A stretch of DNA of 64,000 nucleotides from a virus (IMGVR_UViG_3300048694_000674:1-64000), one strand, 5' to 3'; shown: positions 224 through 7,567, counted from the first letter of the stretch. Numbers and translations: made by a program. Notes: generated by a model from the letters alone, not told the origin.

Positions 224-325
224 ATGGGTCCAGAAACACAGAAGGAGCATCGTGAAATCGCGACTGATGCTTGGTATCAAATTACTGATAAATTTCCTAG
301 CCTGAAGGATGCTTTGGATATATAA
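224..325 (+). pseudogene. thyX: Orphan C-terminal fragment of flavin-dependent thymidylate synthase ThyX
   Basis: MGPETQKEHREIATDAWYQITDKFPSLKDALDI* resembles the phage ThyX C-terminal TQKEHxxIA motif; in-frame stop at 206-208 upstream. Confidence 0.65.
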
Positions 326-328
326 ATA
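321..328 (+). promoter_or_regulatory. T4-type late promoter for the curli-like operon
   Basis: TATAAATA, then GGAG SD and ATG 354. Confidence 0.75.
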
Positions 329-353
329 ATACAGTATTGTATGGAGATATGAC

Positions 354-791
354 ATGAAGAAAATGGCACTATTATTGTGTCTGTTTTCTTCTGTTTCGTT
401 TGCAAATGAAATGCAGTTCCAATTCAAGAGTCCTGCATTCTCTGGTAATGGTTATTCGTCTCATGTTCTTACAGTTGAAAATCTTGAGCAGACAAGAAAA
501 CAGAAGATCATAGACGATCAAAAGGCTGCTGCTGCTCAGGCTGCGGCAGACGCTAGAAATACAAATTTACAGAAGTTTTTGAACAATCTAGAGAGTCGTA
601 TCTATGCAACGATTTCTCAGAATATAGCTGCTCAACTGTTCAAGTCAAATGGTTCTACATCTGGTGAGTTTACAGTTGATGGAAACACTATGAATTGGTC
701 TTCAAACGGTCAGGAAGTGTCTTTACATATCACTGACCCAAATGGTAATACAACAGATGTTGTTGTTCCATATGGGAGTCTAGCATGGTAA
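354..791 (+). CDS. csgF: Curli assembly protein CsgF-like
   Basis: Signal peptide then QFQFKSPAFSGNGY (CsgF N-terminal F.NP.FGG-type motif), FLNNLESRIY; adjacent to csgG. Confidence 0.8.
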   Translation: MKKMALLLCLFSSVSFANEMQFQFKSPAFSGNGYSSHVLTVENLEQTRKQKIIDDQKAAAAQAAADARNTNLQKFLNNLESRIYATISQNIAAQLFKSNGSTSGEFTVDGNTMNWSSNGQEVSLHITDPNGNTTDVVVPYGSLAW

Positions 792-1594
792 AGTATGTTT
801 TGTTATTTGCTAGTTTGATTTTGGCTGGTTGTTCTGGTTCTAAAGCTACAAAAGAAACTATTGAAGCACAGGCTGAAGCTCCTGTGATTGTTACTCATGG
901 TAGATTCAATGAGCTTTTGAATATGACACCACCAGCTGGACCATTGATTCCGATTGCTGTTTATCGTTTTGCTGATTTGACTGGTCAACGTAAGCCATCT
1001 AATTCATTTGCGAGTTTGAGTTCGGCAGTTACACAAGGTGCTGAAGTTATATTATTGAAAGCATTACAGGATGCTGGTCATGGGAAATGGTTTCAACCAG
1101 TTGAACGTGTTGGTTTAGATAATCTTGTCAAAGAAAGACAACTGATTCGTTCACAAAGAGAATTATACGAGAAGGATCAGGCGAAACCACTGACACCTCT
1201 TATAGTAGCAGGGATTATGATTGATGGCGGCATTGTCGGGTATGATTCTGATCTGGGTACTGGTGGTGTTGGTGCTCGCTTTCTTGGAGTAGGCGCTGAT
1301 CAACAGTATAGGAAAGATGAAGTAACAGTAATGATTCGTTTGATTTCAGTTAATACTGGTGAAATATTATTATCTACTGCAGTAACAAAGAGTGTCTTTA
1401 GTACAGGTGTAAATGCTAATATGCTGAAGTTTGTTGATGCTGGTACAAAAGCAGTGGAGTTTGAGGCAGGTTCATCTATCAATGAACCGACAACGTATGC
1501 TGTAAGAATAGCTATCGAGGCAGCAGTTACTGATATGATAAAGCAAGGCGTAACAAAAAAACTCTGGGATTACAAGAAAGGAACAAAGAAATGA
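785..1594 (+). CDS. csgG: Curli secretion pore lipoprotein CsgG
   Basis: Lipobox LAGC; IAVYRFADLTGQRK, AVTQGA, WFQPVERVGLDNLVKERQLIR, GGIVGYD motifs. Confidence 0.92.
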   Translation: MVKYVLLFASLILAGCSGSKATKETIEAQAEAPVIVTHGRFNELLNMTPPAGPLIPIAVYRFADLTGQRKPSNSFASLSSAVTQGAEVILLKALQDAGHGKWFQPVERVGLDNLVKERQLIRSQRELYEKDQAKPLTPLIVAGIMIDGGIVGYDSDLGTGGVGARFLGVGADQQYRKDEVTVMIRLISVNTGEILLSTAVTKSVFSTGVNANMLKFVDAGTKAVEFEAGSSINEPTTYAVRIAIEAAVTDMIKQGVTKKLWDYKKGTKK

Positions 1595-2265
1595 AACTGA
1601 TAGCAAGAATGATGGCGTTATTGTCATTCTTGGTTATGTTTCAATATGCAAATGCGGCGAATAATAGTATCTATGTGGATCAAATTGGTGATGGAACAAC
1701 TATATCACTAACGCAAACTGGAAGTGGAAACCAAATAGGAAGTACTGCTAAAAGATCTTCTTTTACTGGCAGTAATAATATAGTAAACGTACAACAGATT
1801 GGTAATCAGAATACTGTCGATATGACTGTCGTTGGTTCTGGTGCAACAATCACAAACACAATCACTGGTAACAATAACAAGGTTGATTTGGTTTGCGATA
1901 GTTGTACAGCATCTACGATCAATAAACAGATTACTGGTAACGGTAACGAAGTATCGATGACAAACGATGGTCTTACTAATACAAATATTGTTATTGAATC
2001 AGACAACAACAAAATCACTATGACAAATAATACGTCATCTGTTGCTGGTGTAAACAATGACATCAATATCTCTGGTGGTAATGGTAACGAAGTAACACTT
2101 GATCAAACAGGAGCAGCATCTACCGAAGGACACTTCTTCAAGTTGGTAGTTGTTGGTGCAATGAATTTATTCAATATAGGACAGGGTGGTACAGTTGACT
2201 CAAAGATCGATGCTACAGTTACTGGTTCTAGCAACACTGTTACTATCAAGTCCAACCATCAGTAA
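1591..2265 (+). CDS. Secreted curlin-like repeat protein (CsgA/CsgB-like beta-solenoid)
   Basis: Signal peptide; N/G/T-rich repeats of QxGxxN (QTGSGN, QIGNQN, ITGNNN, ITGNGN). Confidence 0.75.
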   Translation: MKLIARMMALLSFLVMFQYANAANNSIYVDQIGDGTTISLTQTGSGNQIGSTAKRSSFTGSNNIVNVQQIGNQNTVDMTVVGSGATITNTITGNNNKVDLVCDSCTASTINKQITGNGNEVSMTNDGLTNTNIVIESDNNKITMTNNTSSVAGVNNDINISGGNGNEVTLDQTGAASTEGHFFKLVVVGAMNLFNIGQGGTVDSKIDATVTGSSNTVTIKSNHQ

Positions 2266-3295
2266 TGCTGGCGTAGGATTAGTAACAGAACAAACTGGAC
2301 CGACTGAAATAAAAAGGCAGAACGCATTCGTTCCTAGTTCGCTCAATTCAGATGTTGAGATGAACGATACGATTACAACTGCCAATGCAAAAGCTGGTAT
2401 CACCTTCAAAGATGAGACCAAAGTTGAAATAACTGAACAAAGCAAATTAGTTATTGACAACTTCGTCTATGATGGTGAGAAGAAAGCTGGCAAGCTAGGT
2501 ATCAAGATGGCTCTTGGTACTATCAAGTATGCTTCTGGTCAGATAGCAAAGTCTGATCCGCAGCAGGTTAAGGTTGAGACTCCGACTGCAACTATTGGTG
2601 TTCGTGGTACGGATTTCTCAGGAACTGTTGATGAAACTGGTAAGTCAACAATCATCCTTCTACCTTCTTGTCCAGTAGGGTGGAAAGACATTGGGCGCGA
2701 TTGTATTACTGGTAATATTTCTGTTACTACTATTATGGGGACTATTTGGCTCACCAAACCTTTTGAATCGGTAACTGTTCAAACTGGTATGACGAAGCCA
2801 GTCTCCTCAATACTAAATCTTGATCTCAATCAGATCAATAACCTTTTGATTGTAACACCACCAAAAGGACGACCAGTAGAAGTTACTGCTGCCGCAAAGG
2901 AAATAAACTTTCTTGATCAGGATTTTCTGAAACAAGATCTACTAAAATATGATGAGCTGAATAAGAACTATTTGAGCGGAGAAGATTTTTTCAAGAATCC
3001 GTTGGCTGCTGATTACTTCCTTAGTATGCTAGACGTTACTAGATCACAGCTGCTTGGTAATGAGCTGGAACAGTATGGTAAGCTACTGCCGAAGTATGAT
3101 CCTGCTAGCGGCATTAAATATAACGTGACAGGCGAGCAGGTTGTGTTGTTCAGAGAAACTGTAAATAGTTATGCTGAAGTGAACGTAGAAACTACAAGAA
3201 TGTCTTCATTGACTTTCGATCAAGAAAACGTTGCTGTGAAGCAGCTAGTAAATGGACCTGGAACTACAACAATAACTATAAGGCAGAGTCAATGA
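2210..3295 (+). CDS. Periplasmic FecR-domain protein
   Basis: Signal peptide from ATG 2210; VETPTATIGVRGTDF FecR motif. Confidence 0.85.
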   Translation: MLQLLVLATLLLSSPTISNAGVGLVTEQTGPTEIKRQNAFVPSSLNSDVEMNDTITTANAKAGITFKDETKVEITEQSKLVIDNFVYDGEKKAGKLGIKMALGTIKYASGQIAKSDPQQVKVETPTATIGVRGTDFSGTVDETGKSTIILLPSCPVGWKDIGRDCITGNISVTTIMGTIWLTKPFESVTVQTGMTKPVSSILNLDLNQINNLLIVTPPKGRPVEVTAAAKEINFLDQDFLKQDLLKYDELNKNYLSGEDFFKNPLAADYFLSMLDVTRSQLLGNELEQYGKLLPKYDPASGIKYNVTGEQVVLFRETVNSYAEVNVETTRMSSLTFDQENVAVKQLVNGPGTTTITIRQSQ

Positions 3296-3564
3296 GAACG
3301 ATTATAGCTTTACTACTAATGACTGGATCTGTTTTTGCTCAGACAGTTAGCAATATAAACAATGCCACAGTGAATATGCAAGGAGCGAATCAGAATGTTA
3401 GTATTACTCAAACTGGTACTGGCCACAGTGCTACTGTTGATCTTCGTGGCAACAATGTCAGTTTTATCGGATCACAGAATTCCAGTAGCCCTCAAAGCTA
3501 TTCTTTTAGTGTTGACTGTGGCACTTCATGCCCTACTTCTCCCTACACTATCACTCAGTATTAA
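3292..3564 (+). CDS. Small secreted curlin-like protein
   Basis: Signal peptide (VFAQ), QGANQN/QTGTGH repeats, C-terminal Cys pair. Confidence 0.6.
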   Translation: MRTIIALLLMTGSVFAQTVSNINNATVNMQGANQNVSITQTGTGHSATVDLRGNNVSFIGSQNSSSPQSYSFSVDCGTSCPTSPYTITQY

Positions 3565-3567
3565 TTA

Positions 3568-5643
3568 ATGGAAAAGCTCGGTATATTACTAACAAGCACA
3601 TGGGCAGCTGTTATATCAGCATTACTGCTGGTAGCTGTTTATTTTTGGAATCCAAGCGCAGTAGAGATTCTGCGCCTAAAGACATTTGATTATCTAATTA
3701 CATCATTACCACAAAAAGAATCAAAAGAGATAGTTCTCGTTGAGTTTGGAGAAAAATCTGTACAGAAATTTGGTCAATGGCCATTCGATCGCAGAGATAT
3801 TGCTAACACAATAAAGAAGCTAAGAGAGAATGGTGCTGGAGTTATTATTGCTCCTATTTTATTTTCCGAGAAAGACAGAGCTGGTGGCGATCAGGCTCTG
3901 ATAGAAATTCTAAAGGAAAATGGAGTTGTCATTGCACAAACACCAACCACACAGACCAAAAAGCCAGATGCTGCTAGAAGAGGGTTTGCCGCTATCGGTT
4001 CTGACCCTCGTCCATGGACTTACACTTGGGATGGTGCTATCCCCCCTCTACCAGCTCTTGCAGGAGCAGCGGATGGTGTGGGATTACTCGCCACATTCAG
4101 TGAGCGTGATGGTGTTGTCCGCAGGTTGCCTATGCTTGCTAGGATTGTGGATGTTCTTTATCCATCAATTGTACTGGAAGGACTACGAGTCGCAGCTGGT
4201 GATCCCAGTTATCAAATCAAAACCAGTGAAGCAGGAATCGAGTTTGTCCGTATCCCTCAGTTCCCGCCAATCCAAACCGATGAACATGGTAGGATCTGGC
4301 TCTCGTGGAACACAAAGTTCGAAACAATTGATGCAACAGAAATTGGGTCAAAAGACTCCTATGAAAAAATCACAGAAAAAATTGTTATCTTAGGATTGAC
4401 AATTGAAGGTGTTGGAGGTATAATAGCAACTCCGATTGGCGAGAAGTGGGCGCACGAACTACAGGCTCAGGCATTACAAACTGTTATTGATGGAACTACA
4501 ATAACTCGTCTGTCATATGCAAACATAGTAGAGCTATTCCTGCTATTATCGCTCCTAGCCATGCTACTATTTCTAGTACCGAGGACATCTGTAAAGTGGA
4601 CCATTCCATTATATTCGTTCTTTGTTGCTAGTATAATCGGTAGCTCTTACTATGCATTCAGCGAATACATGCAGCTATGGGACCCAAGCTATTTAGTTCT
4701 ATCAGCTACAATCGTTTTTGGTCATTTGATTTACAATAACTTTGCTCGTGAGAACAGATTGAAACTGCAAATCAAAAAGCAGTTTGGAACTTATCTTTCT
4801 CCTGCTCTGGTTGAGAAACTACAAAAAGATCCATCGTTACTCAAACTTGGAGGAGAAACACGTGAGCTCTCAATCATGTTCACTGATGTTCGCGGTTTTA
4901 CTAGCATATCTGAGCATTATGGTGCTAACGTTCAGGGCTTAACTCAAATTATGAATCGCTATATGACAGCGATGACTGCAAAGATATTACAAAACGAAGG
5001 CACATTGGACAAGTATATTGGTGATGCTCAGATGGCATTCTGGAATGCACCACTAGATGATAAACTACATGCTAAACACGCAGTAAAGACAGCATTGGAG
5101 ATGTTAGGTGACTTGGAAAGATTTAATAACGAGATTATGGTTGAGGGTGTTCCTCCTTTCGGTATGGGTCTTGGTATTAATACGGGCAGTGTTGTGGTGG
5201 GAAACATGGGATCTTCTCAAAGATTCGATTATACTTGTCTCGGTGATTCTGTTAACCTTGCATCACGCCTTGAAGGACAGTCCAAACCATACCATGTCAA
5301 ATTAGTAATTGGTCCTAAAACATATGAGTACGTTAAGGATGAATATCTCTGTCTTGAGTTAGATTGTCTTGCTGTTAAAGGAAAAACAGAAGGCGTAAAC
5401 ATCTATACGATTGTCAACAAAAAGCCAAAGAATATTGCTGATGCTCGTTCACACAAGCTATTCATAGATGCATATCGTAAACAAAACTGGTATCTTTGTA
5501 AGGATTATGCAACCAGTTTAGAAAATTCATTTGATGGTGATATGAAAGAGTATTATCATATGATGTTAGAAAGAATAGAGGAATACAAAAGCAATCCTCT
5601 ACCTTTTGATTGGGATGGCGTTTACAGAACAAACACCAAGTAA
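3568..5643 (+). CDS. CHASE2-domain transmembrane class III adenylate cyclase
   Basis: N-terminal TM; CHASE2 (GQWPFDR, DGVVRR); about 3 TMs; catalytic FTDVRGFT, DKYIGDAQMAFW, YTCLGDSVNLASRLEG. Confidence 0.93.
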   Translation: MEKLGILLTSTWAAVISALLLVAVYFWNPSAVEILRLKTFDYLITSLPQKESKEIVLVEFGEKSVQKFGQWPFDRRDIANTIKKLRENGAGVIIAPILFSEKDRAGGDQALIEILKENGVVIAQTPTTQTKKPDAARRGFAAIGSDPRPWTYTWDGAIPPLPALAGAADGVGLLATFSERDGVVRRLPMLARIVDVLYPSIVLEGLRVAAGDPSYQIKTSEAGIEFVRIPQFPPIQTDEHGRIWLSWNTKFETIDATEIGSKDSYEKITEKIVILGLTIEGVGGIIATPIGEKWAHELQAQALQTVIDGTTITRLSYANIVELFLLLSLLAMLLFLVPRTSVKWTIPLYSFFVASIIGSSYYAFSEYMQLWDPSYLVLSATIVFGHLIYNNFARENRLKLQIKKQFGTYLSPALVEKLQKDPSLLKLGGETRELSIMFTDVRGFTSISEHYGANVQGLTQIMNRYMTAMTAKILQNEGTLDKYIGDAQMAFWNAPLDDKLHAKHAVKTALEMLGDLERFNNEIMVEGVPPFGMGLGINTGSVVVGNMGSSQRFDYTCLGDSVNLASRLEGQSKPYHVKLVIGPKTYEYVKDEYLCLELDCLAVKGKTEGVNIYTIVNKKPKNIADARSHKLFIDAYRKQNWYLCKDYATSLENSFDGDMKEYYHMMLERIEEYKSNPLPFDWDGVYRTNTK

Positions 5644-6015
5644 TTATTTTTGGTCAGGTGTATCGACGTGTTTAGCTGCGAGTTCCTTTGCAGCTTTCAC
5701 CTGTCTGTCAGCAGCCAACAATTCTTTCGCCTGTGCTGCTGAAGCAGTTTCAACGTCATGGATATGTCTTTCTGATTCGATCTCTTTACCGCGAAGTTGA
5801 AGAACGATGTTGATCTTCTGATTCAGTCTGATAAGATCGTTGTCCAACATGCGTATGCGATCGATCAGAGCAATCAAAACTCCATTTGCTTCACCAAGTA
5901 CTGGTTTGATTTCAGTTGTCGTCCACTGCCATACGAAGTAAACAAAATAACCTAGTCCTGCAGCAGCAACAATAGGAAACCCATACTTGTTGATTAGATC
6001 AGCTATCTCGCCCAT
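5644..6015 (-). CDS. Small membrane/coiled-coil protein (paralog of 7280-7567)
   Basis: N-terminal TM GFPIVAAAGLGYFVYFVW, then a heptad-rich segment. Confidence 0.75.
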   Translation of the reverse strand: MGEIADLINKYGFPIVAAAGLGYFVYFVWQWTTTEIKPVLGEANGVLIALIDRIRMLDNDLIRLNQKINIVLQLRGKEIESERHIHDVETASAAQAKELLAADRQVKAAKELAAKHVDTPDQK

Positions 6016-6018
6016 CGA

Positions 6019-6552
6019 TTAAAACCACAACCATATGCCTTGCGACATTAATGTCAAACCGACTGCCATAACACCAAAACTAGCCCAGAACATTGCTGCG
6101 CTCACAGCAACGATTGAAGCGGAAACAAGAACAATAGCCATCTGCATAGCAGAACCAGCAAATGAAATCCATGGAGACTTCTTCTTTGCTAAGTCACGTT
6201 CAGCTTCAAGAGCTGCAGCTTTTTCCATTAGTTCTTTCTTGCCTTCACCAGTAGTAGGATCTGACTCATAGCGTTTTGATGTTGCTCTGTATTTGTCAGC
6301 TTTTTCTTTATCGCCTCTAACATCTGCATCATCTGCTGCGTTATCTACGATAGTTTGCTTGATTGACTTAGCCTGATAGAAAGACCATGTATCATTTGCT
6401 TTGATAGTGTTTGTTAAAATTGTGCCACTCAGTCCATTAGCTATATAAGTATTGAATGCAAGAAATAGAGCGAATACTGAAATAACGAATCCAGCTTTGT
6501 CTTTTATTTTTGCTTCGCGTTCGCTTCTTGATAAAGGTTTTACTTCGGTCAT
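6019..6552 (-). CDS. DUF4337-like membrane protein
   Basis: NDTWSFYQAKSIKQ motif; one N-terminal and two C-terminal TMs. Confidence 0.75.
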   Translation of the reverse strand: MTEVKPLSRSEREAKIKDKAGFVISVFALFLAFNTYIANGLSGTILTNTIKANDTWSFYQAKSIKQTIVDNAADDADVRGDKEKADKYRATSKRYESDPTTGEGKKELMEKAAALEAERDLAKKKSPWISFAGSAMQMAIVLVSASIVAVSAAMFWASFGVMAVGLTLMSQGIWLWF

Positions 6553-6564
6553 ATTGGGAATCTC

Positions 6565-7197
6565 CTATATATTTTTGTGCGTTTTTAAATGCGAAGACAT
6601 TGAATTTGATGGATATAATAAACCACAACATTTACAAGGAATTTTTGGATATTTTTTACCTTTTTGACCAATAGACATATTTAATTTACCTTGTTCTGAT
6701 TTTGGTTTTCTAAATGATTTTTTTGTTTCTTCGCTATATATAACTTTGGATCTTGATTCGGCGTTTTTTGAAACTCTAGGATCTTCTTTATTTAATCCTT
6801 TATTCCAAGGTTTTCTACCTTTACCAGCTATTGATAATTTTAATTTTGATTCAATAGTATGTAGTTTACCTTCTCTACCTTTTGTTGATTTAGATATTTT
6901 CAATTTTGTTTCTTCAGACACAGTGTATATCCTGCCACTAACACCTTCACCACCGTCAGTTTTATTATGAAGTATACCTGTTTTATTGTTTTTTCTTCCA
7001 TATTTCGCAATTAATTCCATTTCAAAGTTATGAGCTTCTTTTTCACTTATATTTTCTTTAATTATTTGTATATTATTAGGGTTTTTGGGCAATTTAACGC
7101 TATGATATTTTGACCAAGCTCTTTTTTCTTTACCTTTTCCTATGTAATATGGTGTTCCGTTTTCGCGGAGATATTGATAAACGTAATAAATATGCAT
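6565..7197 (-). mobile_element. Free-standing GIY-YIG homing endonuclease with NUMOD3-type repeats
   Basis: YYVYQYLRENGTPYYIGKG, LHNKTDGGEG, SEETKLKIS, KPWNKG; GGAGGAG SD before ATG 7197; very AT-rich. Confidence 0.88.
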
Positions 7198-7226
7198 ATG
7201 CTGATTCTCCTCCAATAAGAATTAGA

Positions 7227-7279: not shown

Positions 7280-7567
7280 TCAGTCACGCCTAGCGTCATT
7301 TTTACCATCGGCTCTGGCTATACGATCTACGTCTGGTTTTACACCGAGTGCATTACTAACTAAAGTATCGATACGGATAACGTCATGGTTCATTGTTCTA
7401 ACACGATTATCGAGTGCCATAATGATTCCTTTCAAACCATTTACAGAACTTGTAACACCAGCCAGAATAAACTTCATTGTAAGAAAAACAAAATAGCCAC
7501 CAGCGCATGCTGCAGCTATAGGGAAACCAACATCGGCTACTAACTTAAAAAAAGCATTGATATCCAT
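7280..7567 (-). CDS. Small membrane/coiled-coil protein (paralog of 5644-6015)
   Basis: GFPIAAACAGGYFVF TM; ALDNRVRTMNHDVIRID aligns with ALIDRIRMLDNDLIRLN. Confidence 0.75.
   Translation of the reverse strand: MDINAFFKLVADVGFPIAAACAGGYFVFLTMKFILAGVTSSVNGLKGIIMALDNRVRTMNHDVIRIDTLVSNALGVKPDVDRIARADGKNDARRD

Follow-up and report, generated by a model that had tools for sequence, protein, structure and literature searches.

The first 64,000 nucleotides (nt) of a 141-kb IMG/VR virus record that is 85% complete (IMGVR_UViG_3300048694_000674:1-64000; this whole stretch is referred to as the window) come from an uncultured, T4-like aquatic phage, a distant relative of Pelagibacter phage HTVC008M. 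At positions 354–5643, the window carries six co-oriented + strand open reading frames (ORFs), all of them intact, which encode CsgF, CsgG, a curlin-repeat protein (Cur1), a FecR-fold protein, a second, short curlin-repeat protein (Cur2), and a CHASE2 adenylate cyclase. The six proteins can be identified, they travel strictly together in phages, and in bacteria they are split into two separate modules. We propose, with a probability of roughly 0.5, that the cassette is a composite of a curli fiber exporter and a FecR/CHASE2 sensor that signals through cyclic AMP (cAMP), two bacterial modules that were joined by phages.

An original prediction, made from the sequence alone, had described six overlapping or abutting genes at this position. 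All six are present as + strand ORFs, which overlap, in order, by 7, 4, 56, and 4 nt and are followed by a 3-nt gap before the cyclase gene. Pfam names four of the six proteins outright (CsgF, CsgG, the FecR-domain protein, and the CHASE2 plus class III cyclase protein), and the N-termini of all five non-cyclase proteins are signal-peptide-like or contain a lipobox. The genes of the cassette are as follows (protein lengths in amino acids, aa):

354–791, + strand: csgF, curli assembly factor (PF10614, E = 1.8e-17; phrog_35372)
785–1594, + strand: csgG, outer-membrane lipoprotein channel of type VIII secretion (PF03783, E = 2e-51)
1591–2265, + strand: Cur1, secreted curlin-repeat protein of 224 aa, candidate major fiber subunit (Curlin_rpt family profile)
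2210–3295, + strand: exported FecR-fold protein of 361 aa (PF04773, E = 1.2e-12)
3292–3564, + strand: Cur2, mini-curlin of 90 aa, candidate minor or nucleator subunit (Curlin_rpt in relatives, hhalign)
3568–5643, + strand: CHASE2 class IIIb adenylate cyclase (CHASE2, PF05226, 1.4e-37 over residues 19–330; Guanylate_cyc, 2e-20)

Proteins of the cassette

In Escherichia coli, the FQF..P.F.GN motif of CsgF goes into the barrel of CsgG. The phage csgF product contains a signal peptide and an N-terminal FQF(K/R)xPxFxGN motif, and it is there that it aligns with E. coli CsgF of 6l7a (pore-inserting motif MQFQFKSPAFSGN aligned with E. coli MTFQFRNPNFGGN). The csgG product aligns with E. coli CsgG over its full length (9.4e-48), and the lipobox LAGC is kept together with its cysteine. 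As had been noted from the sequence, csgC, csgD, and csgE are not recognizable: the search for CsgE, the periplasmic gate, gave no match across the 141-kb record or among the ORFs of the cluster, and searches of the phage revealed neither a CsgD-like nor a CRP-like regulator. CsgE, which like CsgC and CsgD belongs to the gammaproteobacterial type of curli system, is likewise missing from alphaproteobacterial curli operons (PMC9599517), which was also seen in the operons examined here. In podophage cassettes, a histidine kinase gene has been reported upstream (PMC9599517). No HATPase_c domain was found in the 141-kb record, whose contig end, which is also the start of the window, leaves only 353 nt in front of csgF, and in two cyclase-less relatives (L011 and L015) the 244–250-aa ORFs upstream of csgF had no Pfam match that would indicate such a kinase.

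Cur1 and Cur2 each fall below the Pfam threshold (for Cur1, the default one) when searched alone, and their assignment as curlins comes from their families. Curlin_rpt was matched by all 16 aligned members of the Cur1 family, with a best E value of 5.7e-10, and the family profile matches the solved curlin 8c50 (about 1e-10) and E. coli CsgA 8enq (9e-4). The AlphaFold2 model of Cur1 (pLDDT 84.5) contains ~18 short strands in a regular, solenoid-like run. A Foldseek search with this model returned nothing at E ≤ 0.001 and yielded only weak β-helix/solenoid rows, with curlin 8c50 at rank 47, so the curlin assignment rests on sequence profiles. Cur2 starts with a signal peptide and has about three Q-x-G repeats; two of its cysteines are invariant. 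Curlin_rpt was matched by 8 of 13 members of its family, and the family profile aligns with the last two (C-terminal) repeats of Cur1 with an hhalign probability of 90.5%. In NCBIfam, a weak CsgA match was found for Cur1 and a weak CsgB match for Cur2. The labels 'curlin-like' and 'mini-curlin', which had been given to these proteins in the original prediction, are therefore correct.

In relatives, the slot of the second curlin can contain proteins of 441–640 aa that begin with a carbohydrate-binding domain, either PA14 or F5/8 type C (discoidin), and end in curlin repeats:

L001, 8350–9675: PA14-curlin fusion of 441 aa in the second-curlin slot (HTVC008M gp018)
L068, 4313–6232: lectin-curlin fusion (discoidin) in the second-curlin slot, within the 441–640-aa range
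L077, 3667–5577: lectin-curlin fusion in the second-curlin slot, within the 441–640-aa range

Such fusions would be lectin-tipped curli subunits, and the presence of lectin domains on the second curlin argues for real adhesive fibers. The curlins of the cassette would presumably form fibers of the amyloid type.

The ORF of the FecR-fold protein opens at GTG 2186, and its likely start is ATG 2210. The protein contains a 21-residue signal peptide and a FecR fold that begins at approximately residue 23, followed in the AlphaFold2 model (pLDDT 58 overall and ~75 in the FecR domain) by an acidic, low-confidence linker of ~80 residues and a small separate β-domain at the C-terminus. It has two conserved cysteines which, like the two in Cur2, fit exported proteins. 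The model superimposes on the cell-surface signaling domain of PupR (6ovk) with a Z-score of 14.8 and a root-mean-square deviation (rmsd) of 2.8 over 135 residues, and on BDI_1681 (4m0n) with a Z-score of 14.7. The N-terminal half of the FecR domain (model residues 19–113) also superimposes on the cell-surface anchoring domain of MpIBP, an RTX adhesin secreted by a type I system (5ix9; Z-score 10.0, rmsd 2.1, 73 of 76 residues). A curlin-like nature of the C-terminal part was considered and rejected, as hhalign comparisons with the two curlin families gave probabilities of 4.6% and 0.3%. The protein is represented in metagenomes by more than 4400 clusters at 90% identity; the top 120 matches of the search were all phage-type relatives, so this search was without bacterial context.

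The FecR β-domain fold is common to the phage protein and the FecIRA/PupIRB systems of cell-surface signaling, but other elements of those systems are missing from the phage. Alignment, hydrophobicity, and the model revealed no N-terminal anti-sigma domain in the FecR-fold protein and, past the signal peptide, no segment that would span a membrane. Neither an STN domain nor an STN-bearing TonB-dependent receptor that could serve as transducer was found in the 141-kb record, and its sole Sigma70_r2 match is located at 108071–108217, ~100 kb from the cassette, so that there is no neighboring extracytoplasmic function (ECF) sigma factor. Because these four elements are absent, a role of the FecR-fold protein as an iron regulator is unlikely.

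The closest solved relative of the cyclase is the catalytic domain of Pseudomonas aeruginosa CyaB (3r5g, 8.8e-33). The predicted topology comprises a first transmembrane span (residues 6–27), a periplasmic CHASE2 domain (28–318), three spans (320–390), a catalytic domain (~430–615), and a conserved C-terminal tail. Alignment with CyaB 3r5g and CyaC 1wc1 identified the metal-binding residues D440 and D486, the substrate-binding residues K482 and T556, and the transition-state residues N563 and R567. These six residues and K604 are invariant in nine phage homologs, down to 51% identity, and the residue set is, as judged from the alignment, the class IIIb adenylate-specific pattern. All catalytic residues that had been named in the original prediction as retained are thus present and invariant. 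More than 598 stretches in IMG/VR matched the cyclase. When the complex of the mature FecR-fold protein and periplasmic CHASE2 was predicted, the ipSAE score was 0.00 in two runs, both performed without controls. At the level of prediction, the parts of the cassette span the outer membrane, periplasm, inner membrane, and cytoplasm, as had been proposed.

Conservation, bacterial counterparts, and surroundings

For the analysis of gene neighborhoods, 96 IMG/VR loci were fetched that were anchored on CsgG or the cyclase. Co-travel was counted among the cyclase loci that retain 7 kb or more of upstream sequence (n = 48, with a few duplicating one contig). The genes for CsgF, CsgG, Cur1, and the FecR-fold protein were located upstream of the cyclase gene in the same order in 48 of 48 loci, and the csgF-csgG-curlin-FecR block was uninterrupted in every locus of the set. 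Two apparent exceptions (L075 and L097) are contigs that are cut within an enlarged cassette. Co-occurrence across phages, which had been suggested as a check of the original prediction, is therefore strict among related phages, and independent assortment was not seen.

The slot between the FecR and cyclase genes is plastic and contains a 90-aa curlin, long PA14- or discoidin-curlins, or 2–5 kb of cargo. Cargo between the FecR or second curlin gene and the cyclase gene is located at the following positions:

L015, 11971–17096
L068, 6645–8921
L077, 5587–8863

In some phages, the cargo that precedes the cyclase encodes an Amidoligase_2 protein, a GT4 glycosyltransferase, a RimK-type ATP-grasp protein, and a calcineurin-like metallophosphoesterase, the last of which could be a cyclic-nucleotide phosphodiesterase.

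In bacteria, the two halves of the cassette were found apart. When 185,579 species genomes were scanned with the cyclase profile, 80 loci were obtained, 72 of which were of the CHASE2 type. A FecR-domain gene was present within 3 kb, often abutting, in 15 of the 72 loci, and csgG or csgF was present in none. The closest true cellular cyclases are, like that of the phage, of class IIIb; they are ~32% identical over the full length and belong to Micavibrio-like bacteria, other Alphaproteobacteria, and one Pseudobdellovibrionaceae metagenome-assembled genome (MAG), all without csgG and csgF; the Micavibrio-like ones adjoin the best-scoring bacterial FecR domains. The pairing of FecR and CHASE2 is also documented in published operons: LysM-FecR with a CHASE2 kinase in Burkholderia and Pseudomonas (PMC5192318), the CHASE2 cyclase cyaD1 beside the FecR-domain gene smc02177, with Clr and NsrA, in Sinorhizobium meliloti (PMC5498481), and a CHASE2 cyclase-FecR-TPR-phosphodiesterase cluster in Campylobacterota (PMC9239204). 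Recurrence of the pair bears out the earlier view of FecR and CHASE2 as signaling parts. For the curli half, CsgG proteins with 41–47% identity to phage CsgG were found in 7 of 401 sampled genomes of Alphaproteobacteria, the class of Micavibrio, each with a csgF-csgG-curlin operon, and no FecR or cyclase gene was located within 10 kb of the operon in any of the seven.

In one Micavibrio-like locus (L106 4761–16960; similar in L107, L109, and L112), the genes of a type I secretion system (OEP, C39-ABC, HlyD) precede the cyclase gene, which faces the genes of a 1101-aa FecR/FG-GAP protein and an EAL protein that binds cyclic nucleotide monophosphates (cNMP). These loci represent the theme of secretion, FecR, and CHASE2 on another secretion system. 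The whole cassette was also found in two Bacteroidetes-MAG contigs (L100 and L101), the only two of this kind, in which the cyclase is 47–49% identical to that of the phage. One of them, L100, also carries the mpA/mpB pair described below, and the cassette on these contigs is therefore probably phage DNA that was binned into a MAG; a different host range would be the alternative.

The 3′ end of the operon abuts convergent genes stop-to-stop. These encode a small membrane protein, a DUF4337 protein, and a NUMOD3 homing endonuclease, and two paralogous genes among the neighbors are candidate members of the cassette:

5644–6015, − strand: mpA, small single-span membrane protein (phrog_18771), conserved neighbor of the cassette
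7280–7567, − strand: mpB, paralog of mpA (phrog_18771), conserved neighbor of the cassette

The mpA/mpB pair adjoins the cassette in 71 viral loci and in three arrangements: upstream on the same strand (HTVC008M gp011/gp012), downstream and convergent (as here), and downstream on the same strand (L091 and L092). The internal order of the cassette is kept regardless of its side or orientation relative to the pair, which either marks a conserved edge of the island or belongs to the system. One of the two proteins has a faint holin-like N-terminus, but the match (E = 5e-4 over 19 residues) is negligible. In the window, mpA and mpB are separated by the DUF4337 gene and the NUMOD3 homing-endonuclease-like gene (6019–7215, − strand); these two look like insertions, since the paralogs are adjacent in many relatives.

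A promoter-like sequence precedes the cassette:

321–328, + strand: TATAAATA octamer, T4-type late-promoter-like site, read directly, 26 nt 5′ of the csgF ATG, with a putative function

The octamer occurs eight times in the window, compared with 6.3 ± 2.5 copies expected, i.e. without excess over chance. Five of the eight copies are located 4–45 nt upstream of same-strand ORFs of at least 145 aa, which by our estimate would far exceed the ~3% expected under random placement. The late promoter that had been predicted is thus plausible: the octamer is present before csgF and most copies are near ORF starts, although the count is not above chance. Late expression of the cassette is likewise plausible. 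A perfect sigma-70 consensus (TTGACA, 17 nt, TATAAT) at 4396–4424 on the + strand, within the CHASE2 coding region, was considered as an internal promoter and rejected. In 44 relatives, its hexamers differ at synonymous positions, and the peptide encoded there, LTIEGVGGII, is conserved; the match is hence probably a by-product of coding.

A proposed two-module model and its alternatives

In the model that we favor, the first module would be a minimal curli (type VIII) secretion system of the alphaproteobacterial type, with CsgG as the lipoprotein pore and CsgF as the pore-bound assembly factor. Fibers would be built mainly from the 224-aa curlin, with the 90-aa curlin as a minor component or nucleator. 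This module would be expressed in the infected cell, most likely late, and amyloid-type fibers would be exported onto a host that itself lacks curli. The second module would consist of the exported FecR-fold protein and the CHASE2 adenylate cyclase, a sensor pair that recurs alone in many bacteria. The FecR-fold protein may act in the periplasm as a co-sensor or adaptor that contacts the CHASE2 domain, and the cyclase would convert an extracytoplasmic cue, probably the state of the pore or fiber or contact at the cell surface, into cytoplasmic cAMP. Something downstream would presumably read the cAMP.

Several observations weigh against this model. The 141-kb record (85% complete) yielded no domain of the cNMP-binding, GAF, or histidine-kinase type, and thus no candidate reader of cAMP. 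Signal perception in S. meliloti does not require the FecR-domain gene that neighbors cyaD1 (PMC5498481), and a co-sensor role of FecR is for this reason not a given. In phages, the FecR gene is always beside the curli genes, while 2–5 kb of cargo may part it from the cyclase gene, and published podophage versions are often without the cyclase (PMC9599517). The primary partner of the FecR-fold protein may therefore be the secretion system. Moreover, no clumping was reported in cultures infected with the OM43 phage Melnitz (PMC9004378).

The alternative that survives best, although we regard it as unlikely, is that of Wittmers et al., in which curli fibers serve in aggregation ('sibling capture') or in shielding from competing phages, and FecR, tied to iron, and the cyclase only regulate expression or secretion of curli. 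It is in agreement with the complete set of essential curli genes, with the lectin-tipped curlins of relatives, and with the wide distribution of the cassette and its expression in ocean metatranscriptomes (PMC9599517). The regulatory part of the proposal is more difficult to reconcile with the structure of the FecR-fold protein and its surroundings, which lack the anti-sigma domain, membrane span, neighboring ECF sigma factor, and STN-bearing TonB receptor. In addition, the phage showed no regulator resembling CsgD or CRP, and a lytic phage with a fixed transcription program has little obvious need for cAMP control of one operon.

Still more doubtful is a mechanosensor, in which the FecR-fold protein would be a periplasmic 'stopper' or retention domain tied to the pore or fiber, and the CHASE2 cyclase would read its position or load, so that cAMP would signal that the fibers have caught a cell or particle. 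This is hinted at by the superposition of the N-terminal half of FecR on the retention domain of MpIBP (5ix9), by the surroundings of the closest cellular cyclases, which are flanked by a type I secretion system and a giant FecR/FG-GAP protein, by the ~80-residue linker and separate C-terminal β-domain of the FecR-fold protein, and by the location of the FecR gene between the two curlin genes.

A comparably low probability is assigned to the idea of the original prediction that the cassette is purely a trans-envelope sensor, in which the curlins would be parts of the signal path and cAMP would set lysis timing or superinfection exclusion upon sibling adsorption or cell contact. Parts are predicted in all layers of the envelope, the FecR/CHASE2 pairing is real, the cassette adjoins the conserved mpA/mpB pair with its faint holin-like N-terminus, and a lysis-timing role of the pore was likewise proposed by Buchholz et al. 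(PMC9004378). A sensor relay in place of a biofilm-fiber operon is, however, disfavored by the identification of both small proteins as true curlin-repeat proteins and by the PA14 and discoidin fusions of relatives, since lectin domains on the second curlin suit an adhesive fiber better than a relay. No supporting evidence was found for lysis timing or exclusion, which had been proposed by analogy with T4: no lysis gene was confidently identified, the holin-like hint is negligible, and nothing ties cAMP to lysis in these hosts. The least probable alternative is that CsgG and CsgF form an ungated solute-uptake pore or lysis-timing channel and that the cyclase separately reprograms host metabolism through cAMP, their co-location reflecting a shared hypervariable island (ideas raised in PMC7029224 and PMC9004378); it draws on the absence of the CsgE gate from the 141-kb record and on the unrelated cargo (amidoligase, glycosyltransferase, RimK, metallophosphoesterase) that the island takes between FecR and the cyclase, but the genes stay together in the same order in all 48 of the loci counted and have done so through at least three block rearrangements, unlike random island cargo, the curlins and CsgF would be superfluous for a mere pore, and the FecR/CHASE2 pairing is older than the phages.

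Few auxiliary gene sets of abundant ocean and lake phages are as common as this cassette, and it is predicted to bring a new surface structure and a second-messenger enzyme to hosts that have no curli. If both fibers and cAMP are produced in infection, as the two-module model holds, the sticking, aggregation, and sinking of infected SAR11- and OM43-type cells would be altered, and this would be the first phage known to bring its own envelope-to-cytoplasm sensor.

Comparison with known systems

The gene content and order of the cassette are already known from pelagiphages. A curli cluster was described in pelagimyophages by Zaragoza-Solas et al. in 2020 (PMC7029224) and in phage Melnitz of OM43 (Methylophilales) by Buchholz et al. 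in 2022, who proposed that the pore times lysis (PMC9004378). For myo- and podo-pelagiphages, of the T4-like or HTVC023P-like kind, Wittmers et al. reported in 2022 the order CsgF, CsgG, curlin, FecR, second curlin, and adenylate cyclase, and described the cassette as ubiquitous, expressed in ocean metatranscriptomes, and of alphaproteobacterial origin (PMC9599517). The original prediction had correctly named curli genes in SAR11-type myophages but underestimated this literature, in which the whole order with FecR and the cyclase had been published. The gene order of HTVC008M gp014–gp019 (NC_020484) is identical to that of the cassette described here, and CsgC, CsgD, and CsgE are absent from both. 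The cassette proteins are 29–47% identical to those of HTVC008M and up to ~78% identical to those of uncultured relatives, and the second curlin has 90 aa here and is a 441-aa PA14-curlin fusion in HTVC008M.

Each half of the cassette resembles a bacterial system that lacks the other half. Alphaproteobacterial curli operons share the csgF-csgG-curlin layout with the phage, likewise without CsgE, CsgC, and CsgD, but in the seven genomes, within 10 kb, they have no FecR-domain gene or CHASE2 cyclase. In the bacterial FecR/CHASE2 pairs, as in the phage, the gene of a CHASE2 membrane sensor lies next to that of an exported FecR-domain protein lacking an anti-sigma domain; these pairs differ from the phage in having no curli genes, and the Micavibrio-like FecR protein is an FG-GAP giant of ~1100 aa. 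The cNMP-binding EAL protein of the Micavibrio-like loci has no counterpart in the phage, which has no recognizable cAMP effector. In S. meliloti, CHASE2 cyclases produce cAMP behind an outer-membrane β-barrel (NsrA/CyaD1; PMC13001267), a precedent for a relay that leads from an outer-membrane protein through a CHASE2 cyclase to cAMP. In the papers on viral type VIII secretion systems of pelagiphages, FecR was taken as an iron regulator, and CHASE2 is not named in PMC7029224, PMC9004378, or PMC9599517. What is new here is the view of FecR as an old bacterial sensor partner of CHASE2 instead of an iron regulator, which leads to a testable model of two modules.

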